A stretch of DNA of 64,000 bases from an uncultured Candidatus Rokubacteria bacterium (lineage in GTDB: Bacteria; Methylomirabilota; Methylomirabilia; Rokubacteriales; CSP1-6). The stretch covers positions 1,792,001 to 1,856,000 of the forward strand of contig CAVYTA010000006.1 of assembly GCA_963771355.1 (NCBI GenBank), given 5' to 3'. The position numbers were made by a program, and so were the translations under genes. The notes beneath the pieces are model-generated. The model searched no databases, was not told where the DNA came from, and was given only the letters and a program-made list of their open reading frames with translations. Positions 23,843 through 37,767 of the stretch are shown here, piece after piece. Position 1 is the first letter of the stretch. Every line of letters begins with the position of its first letter.

Positions 23843-24688
23843 ATGCCGTCGCCGATGCAGGTGCCTCGCGGCCGGCTCGGGCCTGCGCTGCGCCGCCGGC
23901 GCCTCCCGATGGCGGCGCTCACCGTCTCGGCGGTGGTGCATGTGCTGCTCGCCGGCGGGCTCCTGGTCGCGGTCATCTGGGGCGGCTGGAACGCCCGAAA
24001 GGTATACGTGGTGAATCTCGTGCCGAGCATTTCCGCCGTCGGTGCCCCCACCGCGGTGGCGCCGCGACCGGTGGTGCCGCCGTCGCCGCGCGTTCCGGAG
24101 CCGACGCCGCCGCGTGAGACGCGGCCGCCGGAGCCCGCGAAGGCGCCCAGCCTTCCCGAGGGCCCGCCCTCGAGCGCGGCGCTGCCGCCGAGGGCCCCCG
24201 CCCTGCCGCGCCCCGGCGAGAGGGAGCTCCCGACCCTGGCGCCACCCAGTGAGCGCCGCTCGCTGCCGCCCGCCGCCGCCCGGACGACGGAAACGCCCAG
24301 TGAAGCTCGACCCGCTCCGCCGCCTCCCGCCCCGCCTCCAGGGCAGGTGACCGGCTCGCCCACGGGCACGGGCGTTCGCACCCTGGAGGCCTCGGACTTC
24401 CCGCACGCGTGGTACCTGCGGCAGGTGCTGGCCAAGGTCGAGCGGGAGTGGCAGAAGCAGGCCCAGATCGCCGAGCCGGGCCAGAAGCCGCTGGTGATGG
24501 TCGAGATACAGCGCGACGGCTCGATCGGCATGCCGAAGATCGAGAAGAGCTCCGGGAACGCGTTCTACGATCAGGCCGCCCTGCGCGCGATCATGGACGC
24601 GCGACCCTTCGCACCCCTTCCCGCCGAGTGGGTCCGCCCCTCGCTGCGGGTGATGTTCAGCTTCGACTTCAAGCCGGAGCGCGGATGA
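23843..24688 (+). CDS. TolA/TonB-like protein (TM anchor, Pro-rich linker, TonB_C domain)
   Basis: SxxxH in the TM helix, Pro-rich linker, SSGNAFYDQAALRAI; lies between tolR and tolB. Confidence 0.82.
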   Translation: MPSPMQVPRGRLGPALRRRRLPMAALTVSAVVHVLLAGGLLVAVIWGGWNARKVYVVNLVPSISAVGAPTAVAPRPVVPPSPRVPEPTPPRETRPPEPAKAPSLPEGPPSSAALPPRAPALPRPGERELPTLAPPSERRSLPPAAARTTETPSEARPAPPPPAPPPGQVTGSPTGTGVRTLEASDFPHAWYLRQVLAKVEREWQKQAQIAEPGQKPLVMVEIQRDGSIGMPKIEKSSGNAFYDQAALRAIMDARPFAPLPAEWVRPSLRVMFSFDFKPERG

Positions 24689-26022
24689 GCGCGTCTCGCC
24701 GCCTCGCCGCCGTCGCCGCTCTCCTGCTCGTGGTGGGGGTGAGCCTGGTCGTCTGGCCCCCCGTTCGGCCCGCGCGCTCGCAGGCTCCCGACGTGCTCCT
24801 CAATGTCCTCGGGGGGGGCGCGAAGAAGCTGAACCTCTTCATGCCGGACTTCACCGTGGTGGGCGGCCCCGACCCGGCGGGGCTGTCGCGCTCGCTCGCC
24901 GAAGTGACGGCCGGCGACCTCAAGTTCTCGGCGCTCTTCTCGGTGGTGGGCGGCCAGCCGGCGCTCCCCGCCGCGAACCCGGAGGCGCTCAAGAAGGCCT
25001 GGACGGACGCCGCGGCGGCGGGCGCGCATGCAGCGCTGCACGGCCTCCTCACCCCGCGTGCCGACCGCCTCGAGGGGGAGCTGCGGCTGTACGACCTCAC
25101 CTCGCCCGAGCTGCGCCTCATCGCGACGAAGAAGATCGCGGTGGTACCCGCCGAGGCGCGGCGGCTCGCCCACAAGATGGCCGACGAGGTGGTGCTCCAG
25201 TTCACCGGGGAGCCCGGCGTGGCCGACACCAAGATCGCCTACGTGGCGCCGCGCGACGGCAGCAAGGAGATCGGGGTGATGGACTACGATGGGGCGGGCG
25301 CGGTGCCGCTGACCGCGAACCAGTCCATCAACCTCTCACCGCGCTGGAGCCCGGACGCTCGCTCGCTCGCCTTCACGTCGTACATGCGGGGCTACCCCTA
25401 CCTCTACCGGCTCTTCGCCTTCGAGCGCCGACCGGTGCAGCTCCTGGCCGGCTTCCTCGGCATCAACTCGTCGCCCGCATGGAGCCCGGACGGCAAGCAG
25501 GTGGCGCTGACCTTGTCCAAGGACGGTAATCCCGAGATCTATATCCTGACCCTGGCCACCGGCGCGTTCCGCCGGCTCACCATCCATCCCGGCATCGACA
25601 CCGAGCCCACCTGGTCGCCCACCGGACGGGAGCTCGCCTTCGTATCCGACCGGGCGGGACCGGCGCAGGTCTACGTGATGGACGTGGAAGGCACCAATGT
25701 CCGGCGCCTGACCCAGGCCGGCTTCAACACCCAGCCGAGGTGGTCTCCTAAAGGGGACTCCATCGCCTACACCTCCCGGCAAGGCGCGCATGACATCTGG
25801 ATCGTCGCGCCCGACGGGTCGAACGTGCGGCGTCTCACCACCGGATCCGGTGACAACGAGAGCTCGTCATGGGCCCCGAACGGCCGGCACCTGGCGTTCC
25901 AGTCCACCCGCCAGCGCGGCCCGAGAATTTTCACCATGCTCCCCGACGGCTCCGAGCAGCAGCCGGTGCCCAGCGGGCCCACCGAAGCGGCAAGTCCTGC
26001 ATGGTCGCCGCGCCTTCCGTGA
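24685..26022 (+). CDS. tolB: Tol-Pal beta-propeller protein TolB
   Basis: TolB N-domain (AHKMADE) and repeated PxWSPDG (PD40) repeats. Confidence 0.92.
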   Translation: MSASRRLAAVAALLLVVGVSLVVWPPVRPARSQAPDVLLNVLGGGAKKLNLFMPDFTVVGGPDPAGLSRSLAEVTAGDLKFSALFSVVGGQPALPAANPEALKKAWTDAAAAGAHAALHGLLTPRADRLEGELRLYDLTSPELRLIATKKIAVVPAEARRLAHKMADEVVLQFTGEPGVADTKIAYVAPRDGSKEIGVMDYDGAGAVPLTANQSINLSPRWSPDARSLAFTSYMRGYPYLYRLFAFERRPVQLLAGFLGINSSPAWSPDGKQVALTLSKDGNPEIYILTLATGAFRRLTIHPGIDTEPTWSPTGRELAFVSDRAGPAQVYVMDVEGTNVRRLTQAGFNTQPRWSPKGDSIAYTSRQGAHDIWIVAPDGSNVRRLTTGSGDNESSSWAPNGRHLAFQSTRQRGPRIFTMLPDGSEQQPVPSGPTEAASPAWSPRLP

Positions 26023-26080
26023 TAGGATGACCTCGATTTTCACTCGGATCTTTAGCGTTCCAAAAGGAGGTTTTCACACT

Positions 26081-26691
26081 ATGGCTCAACGACGGGGTTC
26101 TTTGCTTGCGGTCATGCCCCTGCTCCTCTTGACACTGTTCCTCGTGGGCTGCCCCAAGCGCCCCGCCACTCCGGTCGCGTCCGCTCCCGCGCCGACTGGA
26201 TCGGCCATGGCTCCCGCGCCCGGACCGGCCCCGGCACCGGCACCGCCCGCAGCGCCGGGCCCGTCGGCGCTGGCCCCCGCCGCGCCCGCGCCCGGAGGAG
26301 CCGCCACCACCTCCCCCCGGGTACGCCGCCGCGGCCGAGTGAGTTCACCGAGAACACCAATCTCAAGGACGTGTTCTTCGACTTCGACCGGTACGACGTA
26401 CGGGCGGGCGACGCGAAGATCCTCGACGGCAACGCGGCGTGGCTGAAGTCCAGCGACAACAACTTGGTCCTCATCGAGGGACACTGCGACGAGCGCGGTA
26501 CCAACGAGTACAACCTCGCGCTGGGCGAGCGCCGCGCCAAGTCCACGATGAACTACCTCGTGGCCCAGGGCATCCAGGCCAACCGCATCACGATCATCTC
26601 GTATGGCAAGGAGCGCCCGGTCTGCAGCGAGAAGAACGAGAGCTGCTGGCAGAAGAATCGTCGGGCACATTTCCTGGTCAAGGCCCGTTAG
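26081..26691 (+). CDS. pal: Peptidoglycan-associated lipoprotein Pal (frameshift in C run 26313-26318)
   Basis: AAAGGAGG RBS and lipobox LVGC. The OmpA-like domain (FFDFD, EGHCDERG, YNLALGERRA, NRR) is in the next frame; adding one C restores the frame. Confidence 0.9.
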
Positions 26692-26722
26692 CGGCCTCCA
26701 CGCCGGGAAGGAACGACCCGCA

Positions 26723-27580
26723 TTGAAGGCGCGGCACGCGAAGGGGAGCCCCCGGCTCCCCTTCGGTGTCTTGCTCCTCCTCGCCGCGGTGGCGCCGCTC
26801 GCGGGCGGCTGCGCCGACTCCACCGGCGAGGCCCTGCATCAGGACGTCGCCCAGCTCCGGCAGGACCTCAATGCGCTGACCCTCTCGGTGCACCGCGGCC
26901 GCGGCGACACGGAGGCGGTGCTGAACCAGCTCGACCGGCGCGCGCGAGAGGGGAACGCCGAGTCCAGCCGTCAGATGGGCGCGCTGTCCGCGCGCGTCGA
27001 CACGCTGTCCACCGAGCTGACTCGCGTGTCCGCCCGACTGGACGAGCTGTCGCAGCGCATCGAAACCCTGAGCCGTGAGCTCGCCTCGCGCGCGGCTCCG
27101 GCTCCATCGTCCGGAGGCTCGGCGCCGGGAACGGCGGGGGCGCCGCGGAGCTCGGGAGGGCCGACGCCGCAGCAGGCCTATCAGGCGGCCTATCTCGACT
27201 TCAGCAAGGGAAACTACCCGCTGGCGGTGGCGGGATTCCGCGAGTTCGTCCGGCGCTATCCCGACGCCCCGCTCGCGGACCAGGCCCAGTACTGGGTGGG
27301 GGAATCTCTGTTCAGCCAGGCGCGCGCCAGCCTCGCCGCGGGTCAGTCGGACAAGGCCACGCGCGAGCTGGAGCAGGCGGTGCAGGAGTTCCGGCGCGTG
27401 AGCCTGAACTATCCGCGCGGCGACAAGGTGCCGACGGCCCTGTACAAGGAAGCCCTGGCGCTCCTCGAGCTCAAGCAGCCCCGGCTCGCGCAGACACGAC
27501 TGCAGTACCTGCTCGACAATTTCCCGCAGTCGGAGGAAGCTCCCCTCGCGAAGGAGCGCCTCGCCAATCTTGGTGGCTGA
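26723..27580 (+). CDS. cpoB: Tol-Pal protein YbgF/CpoB (coiled coil plus TPR)
   Basis: Lipobox-like AGGC, coiled coil, then TPR motifs YQAAY, AQYWVGE and KVPTALYK; lies downstream of pal. Confidence 0.82.
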   Translation: MKARHAKGSPRLPFGVLLLLAAVAPLAGGCADSTGEALHQDVAQLRQDLNALTLSVHRGRGDTEAVLNQLDRRAREGNAESSRQMGALSARVDTLSTELTRVSARLDELSQRIETLSRELASRAAPAPSSGGSAPGTAGAPRSSGGPTPQQAYQAAYLDFSKGNYPLAVAGFREFVRRYPDAPLADQAQYWVGESLFSQARASLAAGQSDKATRELEQAVQEFRRVSLNYPRGDKVPTALYKEALALLELKQPRLAQTRLQYLLDNFPQSEEAPLAKERLANLGG

Positions 27581-30203: not shown

Positions 30204-31097
30204 TCAGCCGCGCAGCCGCAGCGCGCCCGCGCAGACGGTGACCTCGAAGGGCGAGGCGCCCCAGGGCTCGCCGTCCAGCTGCAGCGGTACCGGCGCGTCG
30301 CTCGTGACCGCCACCGAGCGCGCGCGTTCCCGCGTGACACGCGGATGGCGGAGGTGGCCGCCCCAGTACAGCGTGGGAAGCCAGCAGGTCAGCTCCACGC
30401 GGCTCAGCACCCCCAGCACCACCAGGTCCAGCATTCCGTCGGTGGCATCGGCGCCCGGCGCCACCCGCATGCCGCCGCCGAAACAGGGCCCGTTGGCGAT
30501 GACCACTCCGGTGACCGACCGCGGGCGCGCGGGGGCCCCGTCCACGGACAGGCTCAGCGTCCAGGGTCGATGCGCGCGAAGGCTGGCCGCCACCGCACGG
30601 AGATAGGGCACGGAGCCCCGCCCCGGCGTGGACGCCGCGCGCGCGGCCACCACCGCGTCGAATCCCGCGCCGGCAACGGTCAGGAAGAAGCGCTGGCGGT
30701 TGTCGCGGCGCACGAGGCCCAGATCGCGCCGAGTCTCGCCCCCGTGCACGAGGCGCGCGGCGGCACGGCCGGGATCGCGGGGCAGCCCCAGCGTTCGCGC
30801 CGCATCACGCCCGCGGCCGGTGAGAAGCGCGCCGACGGCGGCGAGCGGGCGGCCGTCCTCGCCGGTGACTCCATTGATGACTTCGTTGAGGGTCCCGTCT
30901 CCGCCCACGGCGACGATCAGCTCCGCGCCCGCCGCCACCGCGGCCGCCGCCAGAACCCGGCCGTCGCCGGGAGCGCGCGTCTGCACGTGATCGCACGGCA
31001 GGCCGAGACGGCGCAGGCGGTCGCGAAGATCCGGCCAGAGACGCGCGGTACGCCCGCCGCCCGCGACGGGATTGACGACGGCGAGCGCGCGCGTCAG
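30204..31097 (-). CDS. Diacylglycerol/lipid kinase family protein (probable CTG start)
   Basis: The N-terminal VVNPVAGGG motif lies upstream of the called start. Also GGDGTLNEV and QLDGE motifs. Confidence 0.85.
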   Translation of the reverse strand: MTRALAVVNPVAGGGRTARLWPDLRDRLRRLGLPCDHVQTRAPGDGRVLAAAAVAAGAELIVAVGGDGTLNEVINGVTGEDGRPLAAVGALLTGRGRDAARTLGLPRDPGRAAARLVHGGETRRDLGLVRRDNRQRFFLTVAGAGFDAVVAARAASTPGRGSVPYLRAVAASLRAHRPWTLSLSVDGAPARPRSVTGVVIANGPCFGGGMRVAPGADATDGMLDLVVLGVLSRVELTCWLPTLYWGGHLRHPRVTRERARSVAVTSDAPVPLQLDGEPWGASPFEVTVCAGALRLRG

Positions 31098-31768
31098 TCG
31101 CGGCCGCCGCCCATCGCGCGGAGGAAATCGGTCATGGACGGAAAGCGCATCATCGGGTTCCCGCGCTTCTCGTCGCCGATGGTGGTGTGGGAGCCGCCGT
31201 AGTTGTGTCCCGGCAGGACCACGGTGGCATCCGGGAGCGCGCCGAGCCGCTGGGTGAGCGACCGGTACATTTCCGACGGATCACTGCCGGGCAGATCGGT
31301 CCGGCCGCACGAGCGAATGAACAGCGTGTCACCGGAGACGAGGCGCCCGTCCACGAGGAAGCACTGGGAGCCGGGCGTGTGGCCGGGAGTATGGATGAAG
31401 GTCAGTGGAACATTGCCCACCGCGAGCGTGTCGCCGCCTTCGACCTTCACGAGATCCGAGCCGAAGCCTCGGAGGAACTCGCGCTCCGCCTTGTGCACGT
31501 GCACCTTGGCGGGGTTCTTCTCGAGGAGCTCCGCCACTCCGGGGATATCGTGGCCGAAGAGGTGGCCGCCGACATGATCTTGATGCGTATGGGTGATGAG
31601 CACGTCGCGGATCCGCATGTCGTCGGCGGCCGCCTCCGCGAGGATGGCGTCGATCTCCCAGGCGGGGTCGACCACCACGCACTCCCGCGTCTCGGGATCG
31701 CCGATCAGGTACACGAAGTTCTGCATGGGCCCGAGCTCGAGCTGCTTGATGTAGACGCCGGTGCTCAT
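31094..31768 (-). CDS. MBL-fold metallo-hydrolase (glyoxalase II/persulfide dioxygenase-like)
   Basis: THTHQDH, TPGHTPG, GDTLF, GRTDL and PGHNY motifs. Confidence 0.88.
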   Translation of the reverse strand: MSTGVYIKQLELGPMQNFVYLIGDPETRECVVVDPAWEIDAILAEAAADDMRIRDVLITHTHQDHVGGHLFGHDIPGVAELLEKNPAKVHVHKAEREFLRGFGSDLVKVEGGDTLAVGNVPLTFIHTPGHTPGSQCFLVDGRLVSGDTLFIRSCGRTDLPGSDPSEMYRSLTQRLGALPDATVVLPGHNYGGSHTTIGDEKRGNPMMRFPSMTDFLRAMGGGRD

Positions 31769-31777
31769 GGCCCCATG

Positions 31778-32326
31778 CTAGCGCAGTTCCAGCACCGCTT
31801 CGAGGAGGCGGCGCGCGGCCGGGCTCGTCCAGTCGTGCCCGCCGACCAGCCGGGCCAGCAGCCGGCCCTGCCGATCCACCACGTAGGCGGTGGGCGGCCC
31901 CCAGACCCCGTAGAGGCGGCCGGTGACGTCCCCGCTCGCGTCCAGGAGCACGGGCGCCACGTAGCCGCGCTCGCGGGCGACGCGCTTCACCAAAGCCGCA
32001 TCCTCGCGGAAGCTCACCAGCAGCACCGCGAGGCCCTTCTTCTCGAGCTCAGCGTAGAGCCGATTGACGGGAGGCAACTCCTCCCGGCAAGTCGTTCACC
32101 AGGTGGCCCAGAAGAAGACGAGGGTGACCTTGCCACGCAAATCGGCCAGCGCCACCGGTCGCCCGTCGAGATCGGGCAGGCTGAACTCCGGCGCGGGCTT
32201 GGGCGGCTCATAGGGCACTGCCTTGAACGACGCCCAGTCGGGCCCGGCGGCGGTTGCCGGCGGGGCGGCGGCCGCAAGGCCCAGCAAGAGGCCGATGATC
32301 AGGCCCCACCGGGGGCCCGACATCAT
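31778..32326 (-). CDS. TlpA-like thioredoxin selenoprotein (UxxC), exported
   Basis: Reads [17 protein letters not shown], with the in-frame TGA at 32096-32098 at the first Cys of the WCxxC motif. Both flanks are TlpA-like. Signal peptide present. Confidence 0.88.
32061..32094 (-). promoter_or_regulatory. Putative bacterial SECIS hairpin of the TlpA-like gene
   Basis: Immediately 3' of the UGA: CGA-c-UUG-c-CGGGAGG[AGUUG]CCUCCCG-u-CAA-UCG. The apical loop starts 16 nt after the UGA. Confidence 0.7.
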
Positions 32327-32874
32327 GCGCCCGAATCCTTGAGCGCCTTGAGCACCTCCTCGGGCTTGAGGAGATCGAGGGCATTGGTCTGGATCTTCAT
32401 GTAGCGGACCACCCCGTCCTTGTCGAGGATGAAGTAGGCGCGCTTCGCGTACCGGAAGATGGGGCTCTTGTCGTCGGTGACGAGGGCGTCGTACGCGGGC
32501 AGCATCTGTCGGCGGAAGTCGGAGAGCAGTAGGTGCTTCGTCTTGTTGGCGTTCGCGAAAGCTTCGAGAGTGGCGGCGTGGTCGGCGCTGACGCCCACGA
32601 CCTGGGCGTTGGCGGCCTCGAAGGCGGGGAGAGTCGCCTCGAAGCCGTTGATCTCCTCCGTTCAGGTCTTGGTGAAGGCCTGGATGAAGGTGTAGAGCAC
32701 CACCGGTCCCTTGCCGAGCAGGTCCGAGAGCTTGACCGTCTTGCCTCCGGGCGCCGCCAGGGTGAAGTCCGGCGCCTTCTGACCGACCTCGAGGGCGGGC
32801 GCGGCGGTGACCAGCCCGAGGACGAGCGCTCCTGCCGCGAGCGAGATGCCGAGCGTGGTGAACACGGACTTCAT
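32323..32874 (-). CDS. Peroxiredoxin (AhpC/TSA-like) selenoprotein, exported
   Basis: [10 protein letters not shown]...QAFTKT-UGA-TEE, with the TGA at 32662-32664 in the peroxidatic TxxC position. The frame continues with GVSAD, LLSD and KRAYFILD. Confidence 0.88.
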
Positions 32875-32933
32875 GTGAACCTCCTGGTGAGCTGCGGGGT
32901 GAAGGAAGCGGCCGTACCCGCTGCCGCGTCCCG

Positions 32934-33509
32934 TCAAGGAACCCAGTAGCCGCTGATCCAGTACGGCTGGTAGTAGCCGCTTTGCACGACCTGGGCCGCG
33001 TGATAGCCCGCCACCCAGACGCCGTCCTTGTCGTAGTACCCCGGCACCCAGACGCTGGTGGCCTGGCCCTGTGGAACCCAGGTATAGGCCCAGTAGCCGG
33101 GGACCCAGTGGCCATAGGAGGGGGACGTGACATACGGGACCGCGAGAGCGGGAGGCGCCCAGAGGAATGGCTTCTGGGCATGCGGCACGTGGTTGAAGGA
33201 CCCGCTGTGGTTGAAGGGCGCGCTGTAGAAGAACCGCGGTTGATGCACGACATTGGGAGGAGTGCTGACCACCGTCGGGGGGGCGGGCCGGAAGTGGGGC
33301 CGGTGATGCCCCGAGGGTCCCGCGCTCCCGCCCGGGGAAGGCGATCCGCCGCCCATCCGCAGCGTCTGAGCCGAGGCCGGCGCCGCGCCCAGGCCCAGGC
33401 TGCCCACCCACAGGGTCGCGAGCAGGGCGAGGGCCGAGAGGGCCATGGTGGTGAATGGGGCGGGCGGGTGAGCGCCTCGGCCTGGCGCGATCGCGATCGG
33501 CTGACTCAT
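32934..33509 (-). CDS. Hypothetical secreted protein with Trp/Tyr-rich WVxGY repeats
   Basis: AAGGAG RBS, hydrophobic signal-like segment, Pro/His-rich linker and repeated WVPGY(W/Y). Confidence 0.65.
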
Positions 33510-33558: not shown

Positions 33559-35331
33559 CTAGCCCGGGATCTCGCCGGGCGCCTTCTGAAGGTCCCGGAT
33601 CAGTCTGGAGTCTACCGCATAGACGGTTGGCGAGGTCTTGAGCTTCACGTAGGTCTGCGGCCCCTCGGACTTGCCCACCAGGAGGCCCGCGATCTCGCCA
33701 CCGTCGGCCTTGAGGAGGGTGACTTCCAGCTCGGGCTTGTCGAGACCGAAGCGCGCCACGTCGTCGCCCTTGGGGGAGACGATGGACTTCCAGCGCAGCG
33801 CCTTGAGCGAGAGGAGGAGATCGGCCACCCGCCGCTCCTTGGTGCCACCGCGCTTGGGCTCCACCACCTGCCAGTCGCTCTCTCCCTTACGCTCGACGAC
33901 GAGGGGGGCACCGCCGGACACCACGCGCGCCCGCTTGACGTCGCTCATCTCGAAGGCGGGGAGGAGGCTCTTGTCGCGGAGGTCGTCGGCCCCACGCGCG
34001 AGGTCGTCGAGGACCTTGCCGTCCACCAGGACCACGGGGCCACGTCCCTCCACCGCCGCCAGCGCGGCGGGTTGCCCGCCGCGCGTCTCTCGCGACGCGG
34101 CCAGGAGGAGGACTTGGGGCTCCTTGGCCCCTTCCTCCCACAATCGCACTGTCACCTCGGGCTTCGGCAGGAGGCGCGGAATGGCCGCCGCGTCCTCGGC
34201 GAGGAATCCACTGGCGCGCAGGTCGCGGATCCTCCACAGCACGCCGTTGACGGCCCCGGTGTCGGCCTTGAGGGCCTCCGGGGCGGTGATCTTCCAGCCG
34301 ATCCCGTCGCGCTCGAGCGTGAGGGGACCGCGCGGCCCCGCGAGCTCCACCCGGCTGACCTTGTCGTACTGATACGCGAGGACCACCTTGTCGCGGAGCA
34401 CGCCCATCGTCTTGGGGACCGCGGCCCAGAGCTCTTCGCCCACCAGCATGACGCCGGGCTCCCCGGAGCGCATCACGTAGACGCCCTTCTTGCCCTTGTC
34501 CTCCCGGCCGAACAGGAGACTTCGCGACGCCCGCTCCTTGTCCTTGCCGATCCACAGGGTGACCGTGGTGGGATGATCGAGGCCGTAAGGCGCCAGCGAC
34601 CGCGGCGCATCCTCCACGAACTCCTTGGCCTTGGCTCCATCGAGCTTCTCGAGGAAGTCGGCCACCACGTCGGGATCGGCGGGCAGGACGCGCGGCTTGG
34701 TGAGGCGCCACTTCCCCGCTTCCGCGCTCTCCAGCGTGAGTGCTTCTCCAGAGAGCTGTAGGTCCACCTGCCCCACCCCCTTGCGGTCGAAGGCGAGCAC
34801 GGTGCGGTCACGCAGCTCGGTCACCGGCTTGGCGAGGTCGCGGGCCACGACCTCGGACAGGGCGACCACCGCCGGCTTGCCCGACTCCTTGGCGAAGAGC
34901 CAGGCGCCGGTCGGGCTCTTGGCGCCCACCAGCAGCGCCAGCGGCGCGCGCCCCTTCACTTCCAGCGTCACCTCGATCTCGGGCGGCGCCAGCCCGAACT
35001 CGTCGAGCTTTCCGGGCGTCGCGGCCACCTCGCGGTCCACCCGCGCGGTGACCAGCGTGGTGACGATGCCGTCGACCGCGCCGCGGTCGGCGCGCGTCTT
35101 CACCGGCTCGAGCAGCTCCCAGCCCGTGTCGGTGCGCCGGATCCGCACCGTCTCCCCCTTGCGCTTGACGGTCAGGGACTCGACATCCTTGGGCTCCACC
35201 TCCCAGAGGCGGCCCTTGACGGAGTCCTTCTTCTCGCGGGCGGGCTCGAGCCAGTAGGTGTCGTAGTAGAAGAAGCCGCCGAGCCCCGCGACGAGGAGGG
35301 CGAGCACGACGAGAGTCTTCCCGCTCATCAT
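33559..35331 (-). CDS. DUF4340 domain-containing protein
   Basis: N-terminal TM and three repeats with W..P..AD, (F/Y)GL..P and LRD(K/R) motifs. Confidence 0.8.
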   Translation of the reverse strand: MMSGKTLVVLALLVAGLGGFFYYDTYWLEPAREKKDSVKGRLWEVEPKDVESLTVKRKGETVRIRRTDTGWELLEPVKTRADRGAVDGIVTTLVTARVDREVAATPGKLDEFGLAPPEIEVTLEVKGRAPLALLVGAKSPTGAWLFAKESGKPAVVALSEVVARDLAKPVTELRDRTVLAFDRKGVGQVDLQLSGEALTLESAEAGKWRLTKPRVLPADPDVVADFLEKLDGAKAKEFVEDAPRSLAPYGLDHPTTVTLWIGKDKERASRSLLFGREDKGKKGVYVMRSGEPGVMLVGEELWAAVPKTMGVLRDKVVLAYQYDKVSRVELAGPRGPLTLERDGIGWKITAPEALKADTGAVNGVLWRIRDLRASGFLAEDAAAIPRLLPKPEVTVRLWEEGAKEPQVLLLAASRETRGGQPAALAAVEGRGPVVLVDGKVLDDLARGADDLRDKSLLPAFEMSDVKRARVVSGGAPLVVERKGESDWQVVEPKRGGTKERRVADLLLSLKALRWKSIVSPKGDDVARFGLDKPELEVTLLKADGGEIAGLLVGKSEGPQTYVKLKTSPTVYAVDSRLIRDLQKAPGEIPG

Positions 35332-35340
35332 CCGGGTCGG

Positions 35341-36995
35341 CTACCTCGAGCGGCGGCGGCGGCCGACGACGGCGAGTATCCCCACGAGGACGACGGCCCC
35401 GGGCAGGATGGCGACCGGGAGCCACAGGACGAGCTCGGCCTGGGGCGGCGACAGCACGATGGGATTCGACTTCGTGTCGCGCGCGCGCACGGAGATCTGG
35501 CTCTCGTCCTCGGCCAGCCACGAGACCACGTTCAGGAAGAAATCGCGGTTGCCCTGGGCGCCCAGGAACTGGTTGGACGCGAGGTTCGCGGTGCCGATCA
35601 CCACCAGGCGCGCCTTGGCGGGCTTCTTGGCGGCGTCGGGGGCGTCGCCGTCCTTGGGAGCGGCGGGGGGGCGGCGGGCGCGGCCGGGGCGCCCGGAGTG
35701 GCGGCCGCCGGCGTGGGCGTCGCCGCGTCCACGATGGCGACGGCGGCCACCGGCAGCGGCCCCGGCTTATCGGATGGGTCGGCCTTGGCCTCACCGCGCT
35801 GCAGCGCGTTCTTGTCCGTCTCTCCCCACGACTGCGCGCTGGTCCGCGCCAGTGCCTGGACGGTGGTGCCCTTGGCGGGGGCCTTGGTCACGTCGACCGA
35901 GCGCGAGAGCGGGAACAAGGTCATGAGCCCGCCCAGGTCCCGCGTGATCGGGTGCGGCTCGTACTGGGTGACCACCGGGACCTCGGGGCCGAGCCCGAAG
36001 GCGCGCCCGATGGGGTTGAGCTCGACCACGAGGTCGTCCCCCACCTCGAACCCGTACCGGGCGAGGTACTTGCGCAGCCCATCGGCCTGGAAGGGCGCGA
36101 GCATGAAGAAGGCCTTGCCTCCCCCGCCGATGAAGCCGTCCAGCGCCGCCAGCTCGGGGGCCAGCAGATCGGTCTTGGGCCCCGCCACGATGATGATGGC
36201 GGCGTCCGCGGGCACGGTGGGGTCGCGCGCGAGGGTGAGCTCCTTCACCTCGTAGTTGGCCTTCTCCATCTGCTCCTTGGCCTGGCTGAACCCGGGACGC
36301 TCGGTATTGGCGGCATCGCTCTCGCCGTGTCCCTTGAGGAGATAGATCACGCGCTTGGCGTCGCGGGTGAGCTTGAGCAGGCCGTTGGTGATGCGCTCCT
36401 CGTCGGCGTCGAGCACTTTCTCGGACTTGGCGGCACCCTTGTCACCCACCTTGTCGCGGCGCTCGAGGATGACGGTGCCGTAGGTGTCCACCCCGTAGCG
36501 CTGGGCGAGGCCGGGCGAGCGATCCGGGTCCTCCATGCGCCACGTGAACTTGCCGTTCGAGTAGGAGGCGTAGAGCTTGAGGAGGTCCTCGGCGGTACGC
36601 CGGCCGGGAGTGTCGCCGCGGAAGAAGGCGATGGCCTCCACTGGACCGGGCAGCGAGCCCAGGACCTTGATGCTCTGCGGCGAGAGGCTCTGGCGGCGGT
36701 TCTCGGTGAGATCCCACCGGGCATTGTGGCGCACGGAGAGCGCGTTGGCGAGGACGGCGACCCCGAGGGCCAGCACGATCAGCACCGCCGCCCCCGCGCC
36801 GTAGCGCGCCGCCCGCCGCCCGGAGGCCGCGCGGAGGGCGCCCGCGTTCAGGACGAGAGAAGTCAGGAGCAGCAGGCCGCCGGCGATGAGCAGCGCCCAC
36901 CGGAAGCGGGTGAGCCAGGGCACCAGGCGCCAGACGGCCAGGGAGCCGACCAGGCACACCAGCGCGGCGGGGAAGACCCAGCGTCGGAGGCTCAC
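35341..36995 (-). CDS. GldG-like ABC-associated membrane protein (frameshift in G run 35665-35671)
   Basis: RWDLT...SLSPQS, GHGE and HPIT motifs. The C-terminal GNRDFFLN..WL and TM helix are in a shifted frame. Confidence 0.82.
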
Positions 36996-36999
36996 CGGA

Positions 37000-37767
37000 C
37001 TATCCCCTCCACCGCTTCGCGTCGAGCGCCCGGAGGGTGAGGAAGAGCGCGAAGGCCGTCACCGTGAGGTAATAGACGATGTCCTTGGTGTCGAGAACAC
37101 CCTTCCCGAAGCTGTCCATGTGCTCGATGATCGAGAGGTACTGCAACACCGTGCGCACCCAGCCTCCCGCCGCGTCCGCGCCCCACCCGATGAGCCAGAA
37201 GCCCAGCAGCGCGCCGAAGGTGGCGGAGCCGGCCACGATCTGGTTCTCGGTGAGCGAGGAGATGAAGACACCCACCGCGAGAAATGCGGCGCCGAGCAGG
37301 AAGAGACCGAGATAGCCGGTGAGGATGGCGCCCCACTCGATGCGCCCGAAGGCGGCCATGAGGCCCGGATAGGTGAGGGTGAGGAGGAGCAGGAGGCCGT
37401 AGACCGCGCCGGCGGCGAGGAACTTGCCCGCCAGCACCTCGCCGTCACGCACCGGATAGGTCAGCAGCAGCTCGATGGTGCCGGATTTCTTCTCCTCGGC
37501 GAAGAGCCGCATGGTGAGCATGGGCATGAAGAAGAGCAGGACCACGCTCATGTTGGAGAAGAGCGGCCGCATGACGTTCTCGGTGGGATTGAGGTTCTGC
37601 GCCGCCCCCGGCTGCATGAACGCGCGCATGGACAGCTCGCTGTAGATGAGGAAGATCTGCGCGAACATCCAGCCCGTCACCAGGAGGAACAGCGCGAGGA
37701 AGGCATACGCCACCGGCGAGCCGAAGTACAACCGCATCTCCTTCTTGAAGATGGGCAGCCAGCGCAT
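37000..37767 (-). CDS. ABC-2 type permease (GldF-like)
   Basis: KE...YFxSPVAY, TMRLFAEEKKSGTIELLLT and TENQIVA motifs. Confidence 0.88.
   Translation of the reverse strand: MRWLPIFKKEMRLYFGSPVAYAFLALFLLVTGWMFAQIFLIYSELSMRAFMQPGAAQNLNPTENVMRPLFSNMSVVLLFFMPMLTMRLFAEEKKSGTIELLLTYPVRDGEVLAGKFLAAGAVYGLLLLLTLTYPGLMAAFGRIEWGAILTGYLGLFLLGAAFLAVGVFISSLTENQIVAGSATFGALLGFWLIGWGADAAGGWVRTVLQYLSIIEHMDSFGKGVLDTKDIVYYLTVTAFALFLTLRALDAKRWRG

Follow-up and report, generated by a model that had tools for sequence, protein, structure and literature searches.

Two overlapping genes on the minus strand of the window, by which the whole analysed stretch of DNA (64,000 nucleotides) is meant, almost certainly encode selenoproteins: gene 1 a Prx-fold, BCP/PrxQ-like protein and gene 2 a TlpA/ResA-like protein, both predicted to be exported. 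Gene 1 starts with ATG at 32874 and ends with TGA (32325-32323), its frame being otherwise open past an inner TGA; the product, with this TGA read as U, contains a single U (U71), no Cys, Arg145, and Ile64 at the site of the motif Pro. The ATG of gene 2 (32326-32324) overlaps the stop of gene 1 and is immediately followed by a second ATG; the gene ends with TAG (31780-31778), and its product, also with a single U, has the active site W-A-T-W-U77-T-T-C80. A sequence-only reading of this DNA had described the 4-nt overlap, one in-frame TGA per gene at the catalytic Cys, and family-like sequence beyond each TGA; all three were confirmed at the positions in Table 1, both frames being open over their whole length.

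Table 1. Features of the gene pair (positions in the window)
Feature	Position	Strand	Remarks
Ribosome-binding site AGGAGG, gene 1	32878..32886	-	5' of ATG, seen in sequence
Gene 1, exported (predicted) Prx-fold BCP/PrxQ-like selenoprotein	32323..32874	-	183 aa; PF00578 match
Predicted signal peptide, gene 1	32794..32874	-	residues 1-27; Ala27 invariant in 25 aligned orthologues
In-frame TGA, predicted Sec71	32662..32664	-	peroxidatic-Cys column; context FIQAFTKT-U71-TEE
Candidate SECIS of gene 1	32613..32647	-	long stem from 14 nt 3' of UGA; loop non-canonical
ATGA stop/start overlap	32323..32326	-	4 nt; translational coupling predicted
Gene 2, exported (predicted) TlpA/ResA-like selenoprotein	31778..32326	-	182 aa; PF00578 and PF08534 matches
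In-frame TGA, predicted Sec77	32096..32098	-	first position of CxxC motif
SECIS of gene 2	32064..32090	-	7-bp upper stem; AGUUG loop 16 nt 3' of UGA

The letters at both sites were compared with contigs of other public runs. One contig (X16) spans the TGA of gene 1 and another (X4) that of gene 2, each with 0 differences; as the same letters were found in other runs, an assembly error is excluded, and the TGC or TGT that the sequence-only reading had named as evidence against selenocysteine did not appear. Three RNA runs also gave contigs across both genes, and across the flanks too; such contigs cannot show transcription. In the table 11 ORF list both genes were present only as pieces (C-terminal ORFs of 91 and 99 aa). 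The fragmented annotation that had been foreseen was borne out for gene 1: 99 of the 120 matches listed in a database search were C-terminal fragments of 102-143 aa, those with names being labelled 'peroxiredoxin' or 'redoxin domain-containing protein', and the closest named relatives came from Rokubacteria/Methylomirabilota MAGs, for which reason the genome was treated as Rokubacteriales-type. Many gene 1 orthologues (L019-L024; P0025, P0050, P0097) have GGAGG and an in-frame ATG just 3' of the UGA, at which gene callers begin fragments of 108-109 aa.

Conservation was tallied in 61 genomes (this one and 60 relatives), leaving out weaker matches (below about 58 % identity for gene 1 and about 50 % for gene 2) and keeping two partial ones. 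Gene 1 was found as 47 close copies in 43 of these genomes, with one TGA in 46 copies, the exception being a partial match that starts downstream of the site; gene 2 was found as 50 close copies in 45 genomes, with UGA in 47, the others being one Cys paralogue and two partial matches. A phylum-wide search with a Cys-bearing homologue as query (E <= 1e-50) gave 120 Prx matches in 112 of 251 genomes, 119 of which keep one TGA with both halves conserved; the only match without TGA was the gene of the query itself, present as a second copy alongside a Sec copy in the same genome. These counts come from kin that are not independent and show persistence rather than statistics; with TGA in 46/47 close and 119/120 phylum copies, a chance origin is nevertheless excluded. 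The tallies and alignments A1-A4 include two genomes flagged as unpublished (G016, G030) and the phylum search a third (G135); no conclusion depends on them.

The two genes also stay together. Gene 2 lies directly 3' of gene 1 in 44 of the 47 close Prx copies (40/61 genomes), and an ATGA or GTGA junction in the coupling frame was seen in 30 of the 35 loci examined. Unpaired copies are few (3/47 Prx, 6/50 TlpA), and the three genomes in which the genes are separated retain both. No third gene was conserved beside the pair across the fetched loci, as judged with a GC-frame ORF filter that produced many spurious antisense clusters, so that the conserved unit consists of two genes. Flanking genes differ between genera; an MBL-fold hydrolase, a 191-aa protein and a DUF4340 protein are kept only within the genus, and others within sub-groups. 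In one sub-group (L028, L032, L033, L073, L074, L076, L080, L157) a gene on the same strand lies directly upstream of the pair; from its translation we take it to resemble cobalamin-independent methionine synthase.

In the window itself, the pair is directly preceded by the gene for the 191-aa protein (32934-33509, minus strand), which bears a leader, a Pro-rich middle and repeated W-V-P-G-Y-like units, has no Pfam or NCBIfam match, and keeps its C-terminal part within the genus. Further upstream on the same strand (33559-37767) lies the gene for the DUF4340 protein (Pfam match), preceded by genes that, from their translations, are presumably a GldG-like gene, an ABC permease and an ABC ATPase. 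Downstream, the MBL-fold hydrolase gene (31094-31768, minus strand; best match glyoxalase II, below cut-off) starts 10 nt after gene 2 and is followed by a YegS/DAGK-type kinase gene (30204-30986, minus strand); both are linked to the pair within the genus only. The genes at 23843-27580 (plus strand) were taken from their translations to be TonB/TolA-like, TolB, Pal and CpoB-like, that is, a Tol-Pal cluster, in agreement with a diderm envelope.

The genome (5.5 Mb, about 70 % GC, 99.8 % complete) holds the full selenocysteine machinery, for which the sequence-only reading had proposed a search. All four components scored above their curated cut-offs: selA (555 bits; cut-off 268), selB (367; 242), selD (266; 125) and a tRNA-Sec (selC) with anticodon UCA (69; 47). 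The genes selA, selB and tRNA-Sec(UCA) are clustered within 5 kb on contig C7 and selD is on contig C4. Among the 61 genomes, selA was found in 51; the 10 in which it was not found are incomplete MAGs (67-99 %), seven of which carry the TGA pair. Within this genome, 13 of the 27 AhpC-TSA matches contain a single in-frame TGA, which in most of them falls at the catalytic position (e.g. DTPG-U, WTPG-U, GYW-U-PFC and ASW-U-GC), and the gene pair is therefore one case in a selenoprotein-rich genome; the phylum has been described as rich in selenoproteins before, with 63 predicted genes for them in a single Methylomirabilota MAG, in a 2026 review (PMC13188914).

A published bacterial SECIS model asks for a loop of 3-9 nt whose first two positions contain G, a stem of 4-16 bp and a spacing of 16-37 nt (PMC13188914). 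The hairpin of gene 2 agrees with it. Across 38 orthologues, 90 % of the cells were paired, three pairs had two-sided changes, a result that 0 of 500 shuffles equalled, although relatedness inflates such statistics. The hairpin forces rare codons, and this is evidence separate from the pairing test: the Leu codon in the loop is TTG or TTA in 38/38 orthologues (2.6 % in the long ORFs of this genome), and the next Pro codon is CCT in 37/38 (3.2 %), the lone change being compensated. Gene 1 probably has a non-canonical SECIS. Its hairpin (9 pairs, 91.5 % paired, 26 two-sided changes) beat all slid controls, but two of five pair measures were not above shuffles (118 and 240 of 500), and in this genome there is no G at loop positions 1-2; 9 of 35 orthologues fold another, shorter, canonical-looking hairpin with a UGGAC loop. 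Single-sequence folding did not make either hairpin unusually stable (z -0.9 to -1.6), and they were singled out by the alignments only. The bacterial SECIS search proposed by the sequence-only reading thus gave a fitting, covarying element for gene 2 and a non-canonical loop for gene 1.

Interchange of Cys and TGA, likewise to be looked for according to that reading, was seen through Cys homologues of both genes. Among the matches listed, 21 homologues span most of gene 1 (57-68 % identity); their U column holds Cys in nine (57-65 % identity), Trp in eight and is otherwise altered in four. Several Trp records extend beyond the normal protein end, and Trp in this column is consistent with gene calling under a table in which TGA is Trp. 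For gene 2, a TlpA paralogue with CxxC is 62 % identical (L151). In a quick tree with the catalytic column masked, the nine Cys forms are nested within the Sec forms, a pattern that suggests changes from Sec to Cys. With the machinery, the interchange and the SECIS evidence together supporting selenocysteine at both sites, as had been proposed, we infer with near certainty that SelB and tRNA-Sec read both UGAs as Sec.

The same tree placed the exported Sec-Prx rows in two branches. Sec/Sec pairs make up the main group and also occur, in reversed gene order, in a betaproteobacterium (L089) and in Entotheonellaceae (L090); Sec-Prx with Cys-TlpA, again reversed, was found at L086-L088, L159 and L160, and Cys-Prx with Sec-TlpA at L163. 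The distant reversed pairs (L086-L090; Acidobacteriota, betaproteobacterium, Entotheonellaceae) fall in the same branch with support 97. Mixed Sec/Sec, Sec/Cys and Cys/Sec pairs on one branch indicate that the partnership persists with either residue and that the system is not 'all-selenium'. An all-Cys Prx and TlpA pair from a deltaproteobacterium (L122) was considered as a Cys version and rejected, as the tree sets it apart from this branch, on a long one. The L163 pair (G245:C79) adjoins lower-GC DNA with an RHS-like ORF, and its TlpA is without the conserved Pro of G-P-P-T. Seven Acidobacteriota loci (L091, L099, L101, L102, L103, L119, L127) carry tandem exported Sec-Prx genes of the AFTGG-U or AFTPG-U type, mostly without the motif Pro and on a separate tree branch; no TlpA was found in their fetched flanks.

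Both chains are predicted to be exported. The best 11-residue hydropathy is 2.56 for gene 1 and 2.80 for gene 2, with small residues at the predicted cleavage sites; Ala27 is nearly invariant in gene 2 orthologues as well. Matches to solved structures begin at residues 27-28 (gene 1) and about 43 (gene 2), and the gene 1 model has pLDDT < 50 for residues 1-23. By a rough hydropathy measure that does not tell a cleaved signal from a membrane anchor, all 53 close gene 1 orthologues have a hydrophobic leader in front of the domain (11-residue hydropathy >= 1.9), and of 50 distant relatives with Cys, taken from the fetched loci, 49 have none. The N-terminal signal peptides of the sequence-only reading thus correspond to real hydrophobic leaders, conserved among the orthologues of both genes, their function in export being a prediction from sequence.

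Gene 1 matched PF00578 (AhpC-TSA) with 103.4 bits (cut-off 26), and U71 aligns with the peroxidatic Cys of the BCP/PrxQ structures 2ywn and 2cx3. The AlphaFold model (pLDDT 87.8) had Bcp4 as its best Foldseek match (E 3.5e-16, TM 0.77/0.89). Arg145 is invariant in 25 gene 1 sequences and aligns with the catalytic Arg of 2ywn/2cx3; also invariant, and specific to the family, are D119, R121, R122, M124, P138, R141 and Y142. The PXXXTXXC motif of peroxiredoxins has been called absolutely conserved (PMC3322552), but its Pro is present in 0/53 close orthologues (Ile 52, Val 1), and its Thr, Thr68 here, in 39/53 (Asn 9, Ala 4, Ser 1). With Pro lost and Thr variable, gene 1 falls outside the peroxiredoxins in the strict sense, and no NCBIfam Prx model reached its cut-off (best NF006960, 54.8 bits; cut-off 140). 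Cys-bearing members of the family are also without the motif Pro and often without the Thr, so Sec alone does not simply explain the loss. A downstream Cys is lacking in 53/53 close orthologues, and an outside reductant is therefore needed; leaderless Cys relatives have the Pro in 45/49 and a further Cys in 47/49. The gene 1 product most likely works like a 1-Cys Prx. The peroxide reduction that the sequence-only reading had assigned to it is accordingly still likely, given the Prx fold, the Arg and Thr68, but less secure than claimed, the Prx motif being degenerate.

Gene 2 matched PF00578 (88.7 bits) and PF08534 (Redoxin; 73.9 bits), both above cut-off, and its UxxC aligns with the CxxC of TlpA/ResA structures (3kcm; ResA 4nmu). 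It was classed as TlpA/ResA-like on the combination of a Redoxin/AhpC-TSA domain, the motif W-x-x-W-C/U-x-x-C and an N-terminal export or anchor sequence; its best matches were ResA/DsbE/TlpA, and no NCBIfam TlpA/ResA model reached its cut-off (ResA 83.9, cut-off 170; rhizobial TlpA 78.2, cut-off 230).

No candidate membrane electron donor gene is linked to the pair. Elsewhere in the genome, at a locus distinct from the pair, ccdA was found (C6:1381540-1382289) with a separate Cys TlpA/ResA gene directly upstream (together C6:1381540-1382794), as was a three-domain DsbD-type gene with DsbD_N and DsbD_TM (C6:394556-396895); PF13386 was not found in this genome. The DsbD-type gene, which we take to be of the ScsB class from a motif and from its PrxL-like neighbour, is followed by a gene for a PrxL-like exported redoxin at C6:394023-396895 (L150, L162). 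DsbD_TM was found in 55/61 relatives and, with the query used, a three-domain DsbD/ScsB-type gene in 15/61, which makes CcdA the more general donor candidate; ScsB was rejected as a dedicated general donor. Both the CcdA and DsbD-type candidates are Cys-based. The 'all-selenium relay' of the sequence-only reading was therefore given up, in view of these donors, the resolving Cys80 of the TlpA, and the Sec/Cys and Cys/Sec pairs.

The reading that we favour, by a little over even confidence for the whole chain, is that the exported Sec-Prx reduces peroxide, is recharged by the TlpA, and that a DsbD-family protein in turn returns the TlpA to its reduced form. Its chemical steps were taken from family knowledge. 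Thr68 and the invariant Arg145 would hold Sec71, which would attack ROOH and become a selenenic acid. As the gene 1 product has no resolving Cys, Sec77 of the TlpA would attack this selenenic acid directly, with a transient intermolecular Se-Se bond; Cys80 would then resolve it, leaving an Se-S bond in the TlpA. CcdA or the DsbD/ScsB-type protein encoded elsewhere would re-reduce the TlpA, cytoplasmic thioredoxin supplying the electrons, a step modelled on ScsB -> TlpA -> PprX of Caulobacter (PMC3322552). The middle step, in which the TlpA recharges the Prx-like enzyme as its functional partner, is likely by itself: the recycling that had been proposed at the outset gains support, as a partnership, from the conserved and coupled adjacency, the electron transfer being deduced from gene linkage.

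Two other readings keep both proteins as exported selenoproteins. According to one, which we consider unlikely, they are partners with the TlpA as reductant, and gene 1 is not a peroxidase but acts on another oxidised substrate, such as a protein or small-molecule sulfenic acid, a sulfoxide, a persulfide or a chloramine. The lost Pro (53/53) and a Thr site that is neither Thr nor Ser in 13/53 speak for it, the family-specific invariant residues could shape another binding site, and PrxL, a Prx-like protein without the motif residues for which no peroxidase activity was found, is a precedent (PMC3322552). The top sequence and fold matches of gene 1 are, on the other hand, all peroxiredoxins, and both the Thr kept here and in most orthologues and the invariant catalytic Arg argue for peroxide. 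A selenolate may, moreover, need less activation than a thiolate.

According to the other, which appears improbable, the genes form one operon but work in parallel, with the TlpA reducing other envelope proteins in a ResA/CcmG-like role and small thiols or a different redoxin recycling gene 1. The best matches of gene 2, the unpaired copies and the Acidobacteriota, where related exported Sec-Prx genes form Prx-Prx tandems, are in keeping with this; nor was a clear Prx-TlpA fusion of the gene 1 branch found among the long proteins of 150 listed representatives. One of these proteins (P0169) joins a TlpA-like domain to a different Prx-like domain. The housekeeping role could, however, be filled by the separate Cys TlpA/ResA upstream of ccdA, and the adjacency of the pair survives order reversal and Sec/Cys swaps. 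That the TGAs act as real stops (in pseudogenes or split genes, or through sequencing errors) or mean Trp in this genome, as the fragments that dominate the databases and W at the U column in 8/21 long homologues listed might suggest, is excluded by the TGA conservation and the SECIS data, in agreement with the identical letters in other runs, the overrun of several W records, as a wrong code table would cause, the use of TGA to end gene 1 as a normal stop codon in 36/37 loci, and a genome that encodes both tRNA-Trp(CCA) and tRNA-Sec(UCA).

If the favoured relay is right, the TlpA-to-Prx relay of the envelope, known with Cys in Caulobacter, gains a selenium form that roughly every second sampled genome of a soil phylum has kept, and genes stored in databases as fragments receive a corrected annotation. 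Pairs of Sec/Sec, Sec/Cys and Cys/Sec composition, together with the Thr/Asn/Ala variants, form a ready natural series on the benefit of selenium in an exported relay; the variants also bear on the need for the 'absolutely conserved' Prx motif. The pair brings no new recoding mechanism and no new selenoprotein fold. It is conceivable, if rather doubtful, that gene 1 stands for an undescribed branch of exported, single-Sec, Pro-less and often Thr-less Prx-fold enzymes with a substrate other than or beyond peroxide and with periplasmic inter-protein diselenide turnover, in a module common in an uncultured, abundant phylum of soils and invisible in protein databases.

Both kinds of selenoprotein and, in Cys form, a periplasmic TlpA-to-Prx relay are already known; unusual here is the active site of gene 1, that of a predicted exported, Cys-free, Pro-less Prx-fold selenoenzyme. 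In the open literature no description of the exported pair was found, although the supplementary catalogues (GOS, deep-Sep, BSepDB) may list individual sequences; the main text of BSepDB does not mention the phylum. The operons listed in PMC13188914 and in the GOS paper (PMC2398784) do not include this Prx-TlpA pair, and the terms 'signal peptide' and 'periplasm' are absent from the main text of PMC13188914. Gene 2 resembles the catalogued UxxC selenoproteins ('Prx-like thiol:disulfide oxidoreductase', PF00578; 'Redoxin family protein', PF08534; PMC13188914) in its UxxC and in matching both families above cut-off. Gene 1 shares with the Sec-peroxiredoxin family (PF00578, TxxU; PrxU of Eubacterium acidaminophilum), which both PMC13188914 and PMC2398784 list, the TxxU at the peroxidatic position, the Prx fold and the conserved Arg; it lacks the Pro of the family motif PxxxTxxU (PMC13188914) and scored 36.5 against NF040737 PrxU (cut-off 270).

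In fold, gene 1 is also close to AhpE, a 1-Cys Prx of Mycobacterium tuberculosis (1xxu, 1xvw; TM 0.75/0.88); each has a single catalytic residue and needs an outside reductant, the residue of AhpE being Cys. AhpE is cytoplasmic and is recycled by mycoredoxin/mycothiol. The nearest known system is the Cys-based envelope peroxide-reduction pathway of Caulobacter crescentus, ScsB -> TlpA -> PprX (PMC3322552). Like it, the present system, as predicted from genes alone, has an exported BCP/PrxQ-type Prx, an exported TlpA and a DsbD-family donor, and the DsbD-type gene of this genome adjoins a PrxL-like redoxin gene, as scsB does in Caulobacter. PprX is a 2-Cys protein with an intact PXXXTXXC motif, whereas gene 1 has Sec, no resolving Cys and no Pro; and, unlike in the Caulobacter pathway, the Prx and TlpA genes overlap here, with an ScsB-type gene in only 15/61 relatives.
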